The notes under the pieces are model-generated. The model was not told the origin of the DNA. It saw only the letters and a program-made list of their open reading frames with translations, and did not search any database. Positions 7,298 to 37,129 of a stretch of 42,228 nt of DNA are shown here, one piece after another (position 1 is the first letter of the stretch; each line of letters begins with the position of its first letter). The stretch lies in the IMG/VR virus record IMGVR_UViG_648861009_000010, one strand, 5' to 3'. Source of the DNA: a virus (taxonomy: Duplodnaviria; Heunggongvirae; Uroviricota; Caudoviricetes). The position numbers and the translations under genes were made by a program.

Positions 7298-7312
7298 TTA
7301 CCTTTCAGGTAA
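7298..7312. promoter_or_regulatory. Operator-like palindrome TTACC-TTTCA-GGTAA in the divergent tailspike / SOS-gene intergenic region
   Basis: Perfect 5-bp inverted arms; identical 16-mer ATTACCTTTCAGGTAA also at 26830-26845; half-site TTACC at 7248-7252. Confidence 0.55.
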
Positions 7313-7677: not shown

Positions 7678-7692
7678 TTACCTTTGCGGTAA
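7678..7692. promoter_or_regulatory. Operator-like palindrome TTACC-TTTGC-GGTAA
   Basis: Perfect arms; abuts a TTTACA -35-like hexamer; half-site TTACC at 7655-7659. Confidence 0.5.
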
Positions 7693-33660: not shown

Positions 33661-33721
33661 CTTTACCCTCGTTTATCCACATAACTTATTGATTACATTG
33701 ATAACTAAAAAGATCGTCGAT

Positions 33722-34066
33722 TCAGAACTCTTCGATGTTCCAGCCACCACCTGCTTTCTTTGGCTTAACCGTTACCCCGATGATTCGGAACGGATACTGA
33801 TCTGCGGCGACTTTGGTTTTCACCCTGGCGTCGTCGGTCCAGAAACCTTTCACTTCGTGCAGTTCCATCTCGCCGGTGGCGAGCATCACAGCAAAATCTG
33901 GCGTATAGAACGTGTTGTCAGCTAACCGCAGCTTGATACCCTCGAATCGATACCATGCGATTTCCCCTGCACGTTTACGCAGCTCAAGGTGCTGGCAATA
34001 CGCAGATTCTGTTTTGTTCATCTGGCCTGTTTTGAGCCGACCAAGAGCCTGTATCTGTTTTCTCAT
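33722..34066 (-). CDS. Small conserved phage protein, possibly DUF1064-type putative nuclease
   Basis: 114 aa; pattern AGEI...YTPDF...HEVKGF recalled from DUF1064 proteins; an operator palindrome overlaps its RBS. Confidence 0.4.
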   Translation of the reverse strand: MRKQIQALGRLKTGQMNKTESAYCQHLELRKRAGEIAWYRFEGIKLRLADNTFYTPDFAVMLATGEMELHEVKGFWTDDARVKTKVAADQYPFRIIGVTVKPKKAGGGWNIEEF

Positions 34067-34069
34067 GAT

Positions 34070-34084
34070 TTACCCCTTAGGTAA
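34070..34084. promoter_or_regulatory. Operator-like palindrome TTACC-CCTTA-GGTAA
   Basis: Perfect arms, 4 bp upstream of the ATG at 34066; the spacer contains the SD. Confidence 0.5.
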
Positions 34085-34131
34085 TTAAAAACCACATAAG
34101 ACATTAAATCAATAGACGTTAGAACATTTTA

Positions 34132-34146
34132 TTACCCACTAGGTAA
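34132..34146. promoter_or_regulatory. Operator-like palindrome TTACC-CACTA-GGTAA
   Basis: Perfect arms; 48 bp from the 34070 site. Confidence 0.5.
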
Positions 34147-34183
34147 TTACGTGGGCGTAAAAAAATGCGCTATCGCGCTGGTA

Positions 34184-34984
34184 TTACTTGATAAATCCTG
34201 CCGCCTTTCCCCGCCTGTATTCCTCCATCAGCCACTGCGCCGGTGTTATTCCCCCCAGGGTGGCGGCGTTAGGCATACACCCGAGACTTCGCCCTGGTGG
34301 ATGGTAAACGTCTCTCCCTGTGTCCGGAGGCGTACTCATGGGTTCTGGCTTTGCCTGTATGCTGATCACCGGATCGGGTATCTGCTGTCCGGAAGCCACC
34401 TTTTTCGCCCAATCATCGAGCAGCCTGCGCGCGTGTTTCTCAACCTCAATCTCGCTAAGCTGGCGCTGATACATTGCGCGGCGGGTATCACATACGACCC
34501 AGTACATAACCGGATGTCGCCACGGGAATCTTTCGGGACCACCAGGATATAAACTTTTTTCCTTGCTGTACCGGTGAAACTCCGCCATCACATCGTCAAT
34601 GGTGACGCCAAGAACCATCTTGCTGTCTTTGCACCACTTGATGAATTGCCCAGGCGACGGCCAGAACGGAGATTCACTGGCTCGGGCGTGGCGCATACCA
34701 GCAGAAACCTGTTCACGGGTTCGGATCCCCCCTTCGGCAAACGCAGCAATCCACTGCTGTTTTGCAGCAACTTCCTGCTCTGGCGTCTTCAGGTTGGTTA
34801 CCACTGCCGCCGGAAACAGTTGTTTCAGCTGTTTGAAAAGGGCATCAACAAGCCTCTCTGCTGACATGTTCACCACGTTGTCATTGTTGGTGTACTGATG
34901 CTCATAACCTGACATGCGAGAAAGGGCTTCTCCGTCACGGTTTTGTATCGCGGTAAAAACGTTGTTCACAAGAAATCCTCCCAT
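34184..34984 (-). CDS. Replication protein P-like (lambda P-type DnaB helicase loader)
   Basis: QQWIAAFAEGGIRTREQVSAGMRHARASESPFWPSPGQFIKWCKD closely matches the lambda P segment RQWVLAFRENGITTMEQVNAGMRVARRQNRPFLPSPGQFVAWCRE. Confidence 0.75.
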   Translation of the reverse strand: MGGFLVNNVFTAIQNRDGEALSRMSGYEHQYTNNDNVVNMSAERLVDALFKQLKQLFPAAVVTNLKTPEQEVAAKQQWIAAFAEGGIRTREQVSAGMRHARASESPFWPSPGQFIKWCKDSKMVLGVTIDDVMAEFHRYSKEKSLYPGGPERFPWRHPVMYWVVCDTRRAMYQRQLSEIEVEKHARRLLDDWAKKVASGQQIPDPVISIQAKPEPMSTPPDTGRDVYHPPGRSLGCMPNAATLGGITPAQWLMEEYRRGKAAGFIK

Positions 34985-35781
34985 GCTTCAGGGCTGTTCC
35001 AGTGCGGAACGTTGTTATCAGGTAATGTTGATTGCTTCTGTCTGCTAATCTGCAGTCGCCTTGCCAGCTTCTGCTCCCACTGTGCCTGATGGTATGCCTT
35101 ACCCTCAGCCATCCAGTAAATTCTGAACTCTGCAAGTTCCTGTGCCGTTGGCAGACTGTCCAGGTAGATCCCCTGCAATGAGCTTTTCCGAAGAAAGTCA
35201 TCTGATGGTTGCCATTGTTCATGCATGACAAATTTGCCTAATTGCCCTGGCCCACCAGGAGGAACAAAGTTATTCATCACGGCGTTGTTTGCGCCGGGGT
35301 CATGAGGCACAGAATCCCCGGTTTTTGTCCTGCTCTCCCTCTCTTGGTTAAATGACTGGTTATATGACTGGTTCTGGATCCCGTTTTTGGGATCATTCAA
35401 CATCCCGTTTTTGGGATCATTCAACATCCCGTTTTTGGGTATATTCCCGTTTTCGGTAACATTACCGTTTTCGGGTTCATTACCCCCTTCCCGGTTGCCT
35501 TTAATGTTCCCGTTTTTGGTTATATTAAGAGAGAAAACCCGCACTCTTTTCGTCGCTCCCTTTCTCTCTCCGGTATCTGAAATAAGCCCCATTTTCATGA
35601 GCGATATAAGTCCGGCCTGCACGGTTTTTTTATTCAGGCAAGTGTCTTTAACGAGGCGTTCTATGCTGGGGTAGCAGAGGTTATATTCATCGGCTCTGTC
35701 AGCCATCGAGAGCAGTATGAGCTTTAATGACGAGCTACCTGGATCTGTCTCCCAGGCCCAATCTGTTGCATGTCTGCTCAT
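34966..35781 (-). CDS. Replication initiator (O-like), HTH N-terminus, origin iterons inside the gene
   Basis: 271 aa; internal peptide repeats NGNIPKNGMLNDPKNGMLNDPKNGIQ encoded by DNA iterons; directly upstream of the P-like gene. Confidence 0.6.
   Translation of the reverse strand: MSRHATDWAWETDPGSSSLKLILLSMADRADEYNLCYPSIERLVKDTCLNKKTVQAGLISLMKMGLISDTGERKGATKRVRVFSLNITKNGNIKGNREGGNEPENGNVTENGNIPKNGMLNDPKNGMLNDPKNGIQNQSYNQSFNQERESRTKTGDSVPHDPGANNAVMNNFVPPGGPGQLGKFVMHEQWQPSDDFLRKSSLQGIYLDSLPTAQELAEFRIYWMAEGKAYHQAQWEQKLARRLQISRQKQSTLPDNNVPHWNSPEAWEDFL
35378..35520. repeat. Origin-like iteron array (about 6 copies of cccgttttYgg at 18-24 bp spacing) inside the O-like gene
   Basis: Two perfect 24-bp tandem units atcccgtttttgggatcattcaac, then degenerate copies; adjacent direct repeat atgactggtt x2. 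Confidence 0.7.
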
Positions 35782-35796
35782 GATTAATCTCCGCTA

Positions 35797-35997
35797 TCAG
35801 CTTGAATGCTGTGGGGAGGAATTAATCATGATCTGCTTAATCTCTGCCCTGATACGACGGTTTGATTCCATGGTGCACTCAACACAGTGTCCGTTGTAAA
35901 CCCAGCGTTCACTGTCATGTCCGTGCTTACATGTTTTTCCGGTGTAGTAGCGTTTAAGTCCGCGCTTTGCGGCATCAATACGTGTAATGATTTCCAT
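35797..35997 (-). CDS. Small zinc-finger protein (CII-position regulator candidate)
   Basis: MEIITRIDAAKRGLKRYYTGKTCKHGHDSERWVYNGHCVECT; start uncertain, the track ORF extends upstream through the hexamer repeat. Confidence 0.45.
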   Translation of the reverse strand: MEIITRIDAAKRGLKRYYTGKTCKHGHDSERWVYNGHCVECTMESNRRIRAEIKQIMINSSPQHSS

Positions 35998-36008
35998 GGT
36001 AAGCCCTG

Positions 36009-36035
36009 TTATTGGTATTGGTATTGGTATTGGTA
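36009..36035. repeat. Hexanucleotide microsatellite (TATTGG)x4 plus partial copy
   Basis: tattggtattggtattggtattggtat, 12-40 bp upstream of the zinc-finger gene ATG; on the coding strand CCAATA, in-frame Ile-Pro repeats if the upstream start is used. Confidence 0.8.
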
Positions 36036-36159
36036 TTACGGTCATTTTGTGCTGACACAAAAAAAAGATCAACCACATTTGGTTTTTTATTACCTTTGAG
36101 GTACGAATAGATATGAAAAGACCGCCGGGTGGCGGTCTACAGAGGGTTGTAGCTGGATA

Positions 36160-36390
36160 TCATGAGTAGAAGAAGTATGCCAGTTCTGCTTTTGAGCGCA
36201 ACCATTGTCTTGTTTTACAGGCTTTAAAAAGCCCATTCATCAATACTTTACCTGGCATTTTGCGCTTACCTGTTAAGTGAGTCTGGATATAATGACTCGT
36301 CGTTCCGGCTTCCTGTGCGAAGGCTTCACGCTCATCCGGAGTAAGTGCAAGCCAGTGCTTTTTGAAATCGAAATGTCCGTTATCGCTCAT
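36160..36390 (-). CDS. Cro-like HTH regulator
   Basis: 76 aa; HTH-like segment EAFAQEAGTTSHYIQTHLTGKRK; divergent from the repressor gene across an operator-rich region. Confidence 0.5.
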   Translation of the reverse strand: MSDNGHFDFKKHWLALTPDEREAFAQEAGTTSHYIQTHLTGKRKMPGKVLMNGLFKACKTRQWLRSKAELAYFFYS

Positions 36391-36426
36391 AGCTATTGCC
36401 TGATATTTATTTCAGATAATAAATAT

Positions 36427-36489
36427 TCACCCATAAGGTAACAAAAATCAAGGATAGTTACCTATGGGGTGCATTTACCTGTTGGGTAA
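36427..36489. promoter_or_regulatory. Immunity-region operator cluster (three TTACC-N5-GGTAA-type sites)
   Basis: TCACC-CATAA-GGTAA (36427-36441), TTACC-TATGG-GGTGC (36458-36472), perfect TTACC-TGTTG-GGTAA (36475-36489); an imperfect site TTACC-TTTGA-GGTAC lies at 36090-36104. Confidence 0.6.
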
Positions 36490-36544
36490 TATTGCTTTAA
36501 ATTGAATCATCTACTGATTCATATATGAGGCGATTTTCCAGAAA

Positions 36545-37129
36545 ATGAAAAGTATCCAGGACGTCCGCAGGCAAAATCTCAACGACTTGATCGACCGTGA
36601 ATTCAATGGTGTTCAGACGCGGATGGCTGAAAAACTTGGAACTCAGGCAAATCTGGTAAACCGCTGGGCTCTTGGCAAGAAGGTTATCGGCGACCAGGTT
36701 GCGCGAAAAATTGAAGCTGCCGCCAATAAACCCCGTAACTGGCTTGATATCGATCGCTCGCTTTCTCAGGAAGGTTTTCAGCCTGTCGGCCCTAGCGACA
36801 TTGGTCAGCTGGCGGCTCACAACCTGGAACGCTGGATGAGCGAAAGCCGCGACCTTTCAACGCAGGGAAAACTACACCGCGCATCCGGCGTCGCCCAGGT
36901 GACAATCAGCCGCCTGTTAAACAATGAGGTCAGCGTTTCCATTTCCACCCTGGAGAATGTTGCATCCGCATTCGGGCGTCACGGCTATGAATTACTGATT
37001 CACCCGCACGACCCTGCGACCATCAACTATGATCGCTCGCGCTACGCATTGTTACCCGAAACCGAGAAAGCAAAGATCGAAAGTTACATTGAATTTGTCA
37101 TCAACCAGAACGAAAAAAACAAACAATAA
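36545..37129 (+). CDS. Prophage repressor candidate: two XRE-type HTH-like segments, no LexA-like (S24) cleavage domain
   Basis: 194 aa; HTH-like TRMAEKLGTQANLVNRWALGKKVIGDQVARKIEAA and RASGVAQVTISRLLNNEVSVSISTLENVASAFG; no Ala-Gly / Ser-Lys peptidase motifs; own terminator. Confidence 0.55.
   Translation: MKSIQDVRRQNLNDLIDREFNGVQTRMAEKLGTQANLVNRWALGKKVIGDQVARKIEAAANKPRNWLDIDRSLSQEGFQPVGPSDIGQLAAHNLERWMSESRDLSTQGKLHRASGVAQVTISRLLNNEVSVSISTLENVASAFGRHGYELLIHPHDPATINYDRSRYALLPETEKAKIESYIEFVINQNEKNKQ

Follow-up and report, generated by a model that had tools for sequence, protein, structure and literature searches.

A probable replication origin inside the initiator gene of phiV10/epsilon15-type temperate phages

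Where does DNA replication begin in a phiV10/epsilon15-type temperate phage? The 42,228-nt stretch of DNA analysed here, which we call the window, belongs to such a podophage or prophage, of the genus Uetakevirus: the context matches phage phiV10 at 97% identity, and the initiator gene is 97–99% identical to its counterparts in phiV10, EC.W1-9, phiv142-3, and PAS61. No paper on the phiV10 or epsilon15 origin was found in the literature searched—weak evidence of absence, as many subscription journals lay outside its scope. Sequence comparisons point to the repeat array at 35314–35522, within the initiator gene, as very probably the replication origin of this E. coli prophage. The arrangement is an ordinary one, as in phage lambda, and the initiator family is one without a previously described origin.

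What does the array consist of? A sequence-only reading of this DNA had proposed six direct repeats with the core cccgttttYgg at 18–24 bp phasing, embedded in the gene at 34966–35781. There are indeed six copies, although CCCG is not found in all of them, one core reading ACCG instead. In a motif scan of the 42-kb window, CCGTTTTYGG occurs on the plus strand at 35381, 35405, 35429, 35447, 35465, and 35510 (6 observed vs. 0.14 expected; 0 of 100 shuffles reached 6), with no copy outside 35381–35519. A repeat search places a 16-bp unit in register six times, at 35378, 35402, 35426, 35444, 35462, and 35507. The spacings are therefore 24, 24, 18, 18, and 45 bp, the first four within the proposed phasing and the last outside it. 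The perfect 24-bp tandem units were recovered by Tandem Repeats Finder (24-bp unit ×2.6 at 100% identity, 35378–35439), together with an 18-bp unit ×3.1 at 35429–35484. Throughout the window, no other local cluster of direct repeats with at least four copies was found. The iterons are dyad-symmetric with an A-tract at the centre, ATCCC-AAAAAC-GGGAT (general form ATCCC-N6-GGGAT), and the perfect dyads are the copies closest to a triple 12-mer that directly follows the last iteron and was absent from the earlier reading. The elements are as follows:

34966–35781, minus strand: initiator gene, 271 aa (HTH_36, linker, and DnaT-like domain)
35507–35522, minus strand: iteron 1, isolated and promoter-proximal (coding strand AACCAAAAACGGGAAC)
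35462–35477, minus strand: iteron 2 (coding strand ACCCGAAAACGGTAA)
35444–35459, minus strand: iteron 3 (coding strand TACCGAAAACGGGAA)
35426–35441, minus strand: iteron 4 (coding strand ACCCAAAAACGGGAT)
35402–35417, minus strand: iteron 5, a full dyad (ATCCCAAAAACGGGAT)
35378–35393, minus strand: iteron 6, a full dyad adjoining the triple 12-mer (ATCCCAAAAACGGGAT)
35346–35374, minus strand: three 12-nt repeats, GAAYC ×3 (coding strand GAACCAGTCATAT / AACCAGTCATTT / AACC)
35314–35329, minus strand: degenerate iteron-like site beyond the 12-mers (GACAAAAACCGGGGAT)

The degenerate site differs at one position among strains. “Terminator-like” matches at 35388–35431 were set aside as merely the iteron dyads. 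Rfam gave no match in 33900–36700, and single-strand folding of the array region was not notable (z-score −1.0). A full-text literature search with the iteron and 12-mer sequences returned only unrelated primers, many subscription journals being outside its scope.

How does the array sit among the surrounding genes? As had been proposed, the cluster lies inside a gene, the minus-strand open reading frame of 271 aa, and encodes peptide repeats: the translation reads ...NITKNGN...EPENGNVTENGNIPKNGMLNDPKNGMLNDPKNGIQ (in a fuller stretch, ...ENGNVTENGNIPKNGMLNDPKNGMLNDPKNGIQ...), with one frame for all six copies. The lambda P-like loader claimed to lie immediately downstream is there as well, its gene overlapping the initiator stop by 19 nt. 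On the same strand upstream of the initiator come, in order, a PR-like promoter, a cro-like gene, an intrinsic terminator, and a small gene.

34184–34984, minus strand: lambda-P-family helicase loader gene (PF06992 Phage_lambda_P, E = 1.5e-56)
36119–36138, minus strand: tR1-like intrinsic terminator separating the cro-like gene from the replication genes (the same terminator is annotated in phiV10)
36416–36444, minus strand: candidate PR-like sigma-70 promoter (consensus match only)

This promoter would drive the cro-like gene, the small gene, the initiator, and the loader, and would thereby transcribe through the array.

Is the initiator a relative of lambda O? It matches phrog_1032, “replication initiation protein” (E = 1e-108), and is built from an N-terminal HTH_36 winged-helix domain (aa 18–67, E = 1.8e-10 in Pfam), the iteron-encoded linker (aa 88–135), and a DnaT domain (PF17948, aa 184–252, E = 1.1e-15; DnaT-like region aa 180–265). 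The C-terminal 86 residues align with residues 85–170 of E. coli DnaT (PDB 9zbt_D, E = 6.6e-21); the alignment spans those residues only, and the N-terminal domain of DnaT (residues 1–84) is absent from the initiator. GenBank and RefSeq carry the protein as “primosomal protein I,” “DnaT,” or “DnaT-like ssDNA-binding domain-containing protein.” Because only DnaT 85–170 aligned and the N terminus is HTH_36, “primosomal protein I” is a misnomer; the protein is a phage initiator, DnaT-like only in its C-terminal 86 residues, and the widespread “primosomal protein I”/“DnaT-like” label can be corrected accordingly.

The description “O-like” fits the architecture and the probable function of the protein but not its domains. 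Pfam Phage_rep_O (PF04492), which lambda O itself matches at E = 5.7e-36, is unmatched by the initiator, and in place of the lambda O-type C terminus (Phg_2220_C), which it does not carry, the window protein has its DnaT-like domain. BLASTP found no match between the initiator and lambda O. With hhalign, a 42-sequence profile of the N-domain aligned to lambda O at a probability of 9%; the aligned segment is topologically sensible, comprising a helix and a wing, and stops where the iterons start. Both proteins match phrog_678 and phrog_345 through their N-terminal halves, and Brezellec et al. report that HHpred detects HTH_36 in lambda O (PMC5509034). By BLASTP and hhalign, homology of the initiator to lambda O cannot be demonstrated. 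Nor did it match plasmid Rep families (Rep_3/RepA type) in Pfam. A PDB search with the N-domain profile gave one marginal match, to a hypothetical regulator (E = 0.07), and a single-sequence AlphaFold2 model of the N-domain was unusable (mean pLDDT 51.9).

With which part of the protein is the array inherited? Searched with tblastn against phage genomes, the initiator splits in two: aa 1–150, repeats included, match the initiators of Edwardsiella phage GF-2, Vibrio phage H20, AP22, and the E. coli PPompW prophage, and aa 161–271 match those of SPN1S, Tyrion, TL-2011b, and Rac. When one genome per species was scanned with the N-domain alignment as query, 80 loci emerged, from Enterobacterales, Vibrio, Pseudoalteromonas, Marinomonas, Acinetobacter, Sulfuricella, Polaromonas, Sphingomonadales, and Desulfovibrio. 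The 71 family members searched for domains all carry HTH_36, and their C termini are diverse—DnaT in 7, Phg_2220_C in 5, DnaA_N in 2, and no recognised domain in most—with a weak RP-C match in 1 of the 71. The downstream partner varies too: the window, GF-2, and PPompW have a P-family loader there, and AP22 has a DnaB-type helicase.

The clearest case of such exchange is GF-2 (gp62/gp63), a natural chimera. Residues 1–139 of its initiator are 52% identical to the window initiator, whereas its C-terminal half is the lambda O C terminus (aa 137–280, 62% identical to lambda O aa 156–299). It has iterons ATCCCAAAATTGGGAT ×3 plus ACCCAAAAACGGGAT, GAAYC repeats, and a P-family loader, and the chimera junction coincides with the right end of lambda's AT-rich region. 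GF-2 thus indicates that the N-domain, the iterons, and the repeats that follow were exchanged together, as a unit, for the corresponding N-domain, iterons, and AT-rich tract of lambda. Three sibling Uetakevirus loci present the converse combination:

L174 (TL-2011b), 1282–2854
L007 (Tyrion), 1240–2789
L006 (SPN1S), 1030–1845

Their initiators have the window-type DnaT C-domain behind a different, unrecognised N-domain, and in none of the three (0/3) does the initiator gene or its vicinity contain an iteron array. A P-family loader lies next to the initiator in TL-2011b and Tyrion and not in SPN1S; the TL-2011b phage is otherwise ~96% identical to the initiator-bearing half of the window. Across these genomes, then, the array is inherited with the N-domain and not with the C-domain or the loader.

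Are the 12-mers beside the last iteron part of the same element? Array statistics were taken from the 72 loci with a full-length gene, each from a different species. In 52 of the 72 the last iteron is followed by a GAAYC triple with 12–13-nt spacing, and in 67 by at least a double, against a background of 0.003 elements per 370 nt. The copies encode NQSY/NQSF in the window phage and NQSL/EPVI in H20. Because the 12- or 13-nt spacing puts copies in different frames across phages, the GAAYC repeat is a DNA element as well. In Acinetobacter loci it continues into a AAAAATAAAAA tract. In the window the element is ~38% GC and the lowest 40-bp windows are 30–37.5% GC; no lambda-like A+T block lies beside the array. 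We infer that the 12-mer segment at 35346–35374 is a candidate unwinding or ssDNA-contact element, the unwinding role being suggested by analogy with the AT-rich tract of lambda and the 13-mers of oriC and RK2.

Could the repeats instead be initiator-binding sites with a purely regulatory role, replication starting elsewhere? Autoregulation, copy control or handcuffing, and exclusion of a co-resident phage that shares the module are all possible roles, and plasmid iterons have such roles (PMC4980987). No strong AT-rich tract adjoins the array, and the sibling phages with another N-domain must replicate although they have no in-gene array. Against this, the 42-kb window contains no further repeat cluster, the array and 12-mers of GF-2 stand exactly in place of lambda's iterons and AT-rich tract, and a conserved triple 12–13-mer at the last iteron is what an unwinding element would look like. 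We therefore consider a regulatory-only array unlikely and an origin the better account of the locus.

Does selection act on the DNA or on the peptide? Because the six copies in the window share one frame, the window sequence alone does not discriminate between a DNA element and a peptide repeat. The repeats might be a low-complexity peptide linker (NG..PKNG) generated by replication slippage, with no cis-acting function in the DNA, and two features of these phages agree with that: the window copies are all in frame and encode peptide repeats, and copy number changes in steps of a whole unit, the outcome expected of slippage. Of 5,426 complete E. coli genomes, 422 (about 8%) carry the 401-bp origin segment, strain S87 with a 100% match, and the segment's length variants (377, 383, 395, 419, and 425 bp) correspond to gains or losses of whole 18- or 24-bp iterons; the phiV10 segment has a third 12-mer. 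In 77 viral contigs whose N-domain is essentially the same, we counted between 4 and 9 iterons, most often 6 (57/77), and the 12-mer count is 2 in 75; these contigs are near-identical E. coli prophages only and serve for copy-number counts, not diversity. A per-site polymorphism analysis of 49 equal-length E. coli genes was discarded, as indels shift the register.

The wider family separates the two possibilities. We scored an array where the 300 nt after the HTH domain held at least four copies of a 9-mer (1 mismatch allowed), and 68 of the 72 loci have one. Control windows (n = 976) had a mean best copy count of 2.36, and 62 of the 72 loci scored higher than any of their own control windows. 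In 60 of the 72 loci at least two reading frames hold copies, and in 33 all three do. The density of CC-N6-GG sites whose centre is A/T-rich is 4.76 per 330 nt in array windows vs. 0.31 elsewhere, and 290 of 343 such sites have the same orientation. Taken together, copies in more than one frame and enriched, co-oriented CC-N6-GG sites argue for selection on the DNA rather than on the peptide. The same ACCCAAAAACGGGA, for example, is read as TQKR in GF-2 and PPompW and as PKNG in the window phage. That the repeats are merely a peptide linker is accordingly very unlikely: in those 60 homologues the DNA motif recurs in other frames and encodes other peptides, and the dyad and site orientation are kept from Enterobacterales to Acinetobacter and Desulfovibrio despite differing peptides.

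The family consensus of the iteron is GTCCCAAAAACGGGAC, with variants such as CCCAAAAACGGG vs. the Acinetobacter form CCCAACAATGGG. Arrays occupy the same location as in the window in GF-2 (ATCCCAAAATTGGGAT ×3), Vibrio phage H20 (CCGAAAACGGTAC ×5), and Acinetobacter phage AP22 (CCCAAAAACGGA, CCCATATACGGG, and CCCAAATTTGGG). Some relatives (among L112, L125, and L146–L167) have up to 9–10 iterons with 17-nt spacing, and inverted copies, e.g., CCGTTTTTCC, occur in Enterobacter, Kluyvera, and Scandinavium loci; array architecture thus varies considerably from clade to clade.

A-tract dyads are generic bent-DNA sites, but it is highly improbable that these serve another protein (DnaA, IHF, or the phage repressor or Cro) instead of the initiator, since no DnaA box lies within about 1.7 kb of the array, the phage's own operator-like palindrome (TTACCYNNNRGGTAA) differs in sequence, and the array tracks the initiator N-domain in E. 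coli, Vibrio, Acinetobacter, and Desulfovibrio.

How might an origin of this kind work? On the model of lambda O/P, transcription that starts at the PR-like promoter would both supply the initiator and activate the origin. N-domain dimers seated on the iterons would bend the DNA, giving an O-some-like complex, and the adjacent 12-mer segment would open. The DnaT-like C-domain could then hold ssDNA, dock the P-like loader carrying host DnaB, or do both, after which host DnaB would be loaded and replication would start. 

How close is the resemblance to oriλ, where O and P act at four iterons and an AT-rich tract in gene O? There, too, the array lies in the initiator reading frame between the N- and C-domains; a P-family loader follows immediately, and the module stands downstream of a cro-like gene and a terminator. 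The lambda iterons, ATCCCTC-AAAAC-GAGGGA, have the same ATCCC...GGGAT-type dyad and A-tract centre as those of the window. The lambda-type arrangement that had been proposed for this locus is thus well supported by the placement of the array, the neighbouring loader, the lambda-like dyads, the signs of selection at the DNA level, and the joint inheritance of array and N-domain. The differences are in the parts: the N-domain is Phage_rep_O in lambda and HTH_36 here, the C-domain is Phg_2220_C in lambda and DnaT-like here, the iteron is 18 bp in lambda and 16 bp here, and in place of lambda's long and far A+T-richer tract the window has three 12-nt repeats at ~38% GC. The element probably works like oriλ, if the analogy holds, yet with a protein outside the lambda O family. 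The understanding of lambdoid replication itself is unchanged.

Other phages offer further parallels. Iteron number varies among relatives of lambda as it does in the window phage family: lambda has four and Stx phages such as 933W and P27 have six, and those nearest the AT-rich tract are bound best (PMC7466680). Gene 18 of P22 and phage L likewise contains its own iterons (PMC8022706). The Stx, P22, and L initiators are relatives of lambda O/gp18, unlike the window initiator, and the window iterons bear no sequence relationship to the phage L iteron, TGTCCAACGGA. The L origin, too, was inferred in silico; for lambdoid phages such inference of in-gene iterons from sequence is routine (PMC8022706). 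The three or four tandem 13-mers of E. coli oriC and RK2 oriV resemble the window element in being 12–13-nt repeats beside an initiator-binding array, and the Rep proteins of iteron plasmids bind a single strand of such repeats (PMC4081077). They differ in their unrelated sequence, and in that the window element is part of a coding sequence and has only a moderate A+T content.

On the protein side, a parallel with identical architecture is the DopC/DopE pair of Cellvibrionales and Oceanospirillales, in which the same HTH_36 domain and DnaT C-terminal motif are found with a lambda-P-like neighbour (PMC5509034). DopC is a domesticated chromosomal gene, for which Brezellec et al. (2017) found neither iterons nor a signal of origin activity (PMC5509034). 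The chromosomal gene is iteron-free, whereas the window gene lies in a prophage and has a full array; because of this location and array, it looks like the undomesticated state of DopC, and the locus shows the likely phage ancestor state of this domesticated helicase-loading pair.

Could a single origin cassette be shared more widely? A tentative reading, which we hold to be possible but rather less likely than not, is that prophages of Gamma-, Beta-, and Alphaproteobacteria and Desulfovibrio share one portable cassette whose GAAYC repeats are read by the initiator. Such a cassette may comprise the HTH_36 N-domain, the GTCCCAAAAACGGGAC iterons, and three 12–13-nt GAAYC repeats, and it may plug into DnaT-like, lambda O C-terminal, DnaA_N-like, or DnaB-type modules. 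GAAYC may then be, rather than a passive AT-rich tract, a sequence-specific unwinding or ssDNA-binding element, a phage counterpart of the oriC and RK2 13-mers. Of everything in this analysis, the family-wide GAAYC element most deserves follow-up.

Whatever the standing of the wider cassette, the probable origin in the initiator gene has practical uses. It gives a concrete candidate for the phiV10-type replication module carried by about 8% of complete E. coli genomes, and the signature of iterons plus triple GAAYC permits origin annotation in hundreds of prophages from many genera. It also predicts iteron-based cross-talk or exclusion between co-resident prophages with a common N-domain.

What other sequence features does the replication and control region contain? 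The palindrome TTACCYNNNRGGTAA has 17 matches in the window at up to two mismatches (2.45 expected; 0 of 100 shuffles), with perfect copies at 7298, 8745, 26831, 34070, 34132, 36475, and 37187 and one-mismatch copies at 7678, 36090, 36427, and 37249. Three lie in the divergent repressor/cro region, two just beyond the repressor gene, and two between the P-like gene and the DUF1064 gene; it looks like an operator used at several sites in the genome. The repressor-like protein encoded at 36545–37129 has two HTH regions (aa 21–61 and 106–147) and no match to a LexA/S24-type autocleavage domain, so induction may need an antirepressor or another route. The sole perfect DnaA box of the window, TTATCCACA, is at 33673–33681, in the small space that separates the DUF1064 gene from the gene after it and ~1.7 kb away from the iterons; boxes with at most one mismatch are mildly enriched over the whole window (17 vs. 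9.3 expected). Finally, a perfect hexamer microsatellite, (TATTGG)×4.7 at 36010–36037 and (CCAATA)n on the minus strand, stands directly upstream of the ATG (35997) of the phrog_1081 small gene that precedes the initiator, where it could form a slippage-prone leader.
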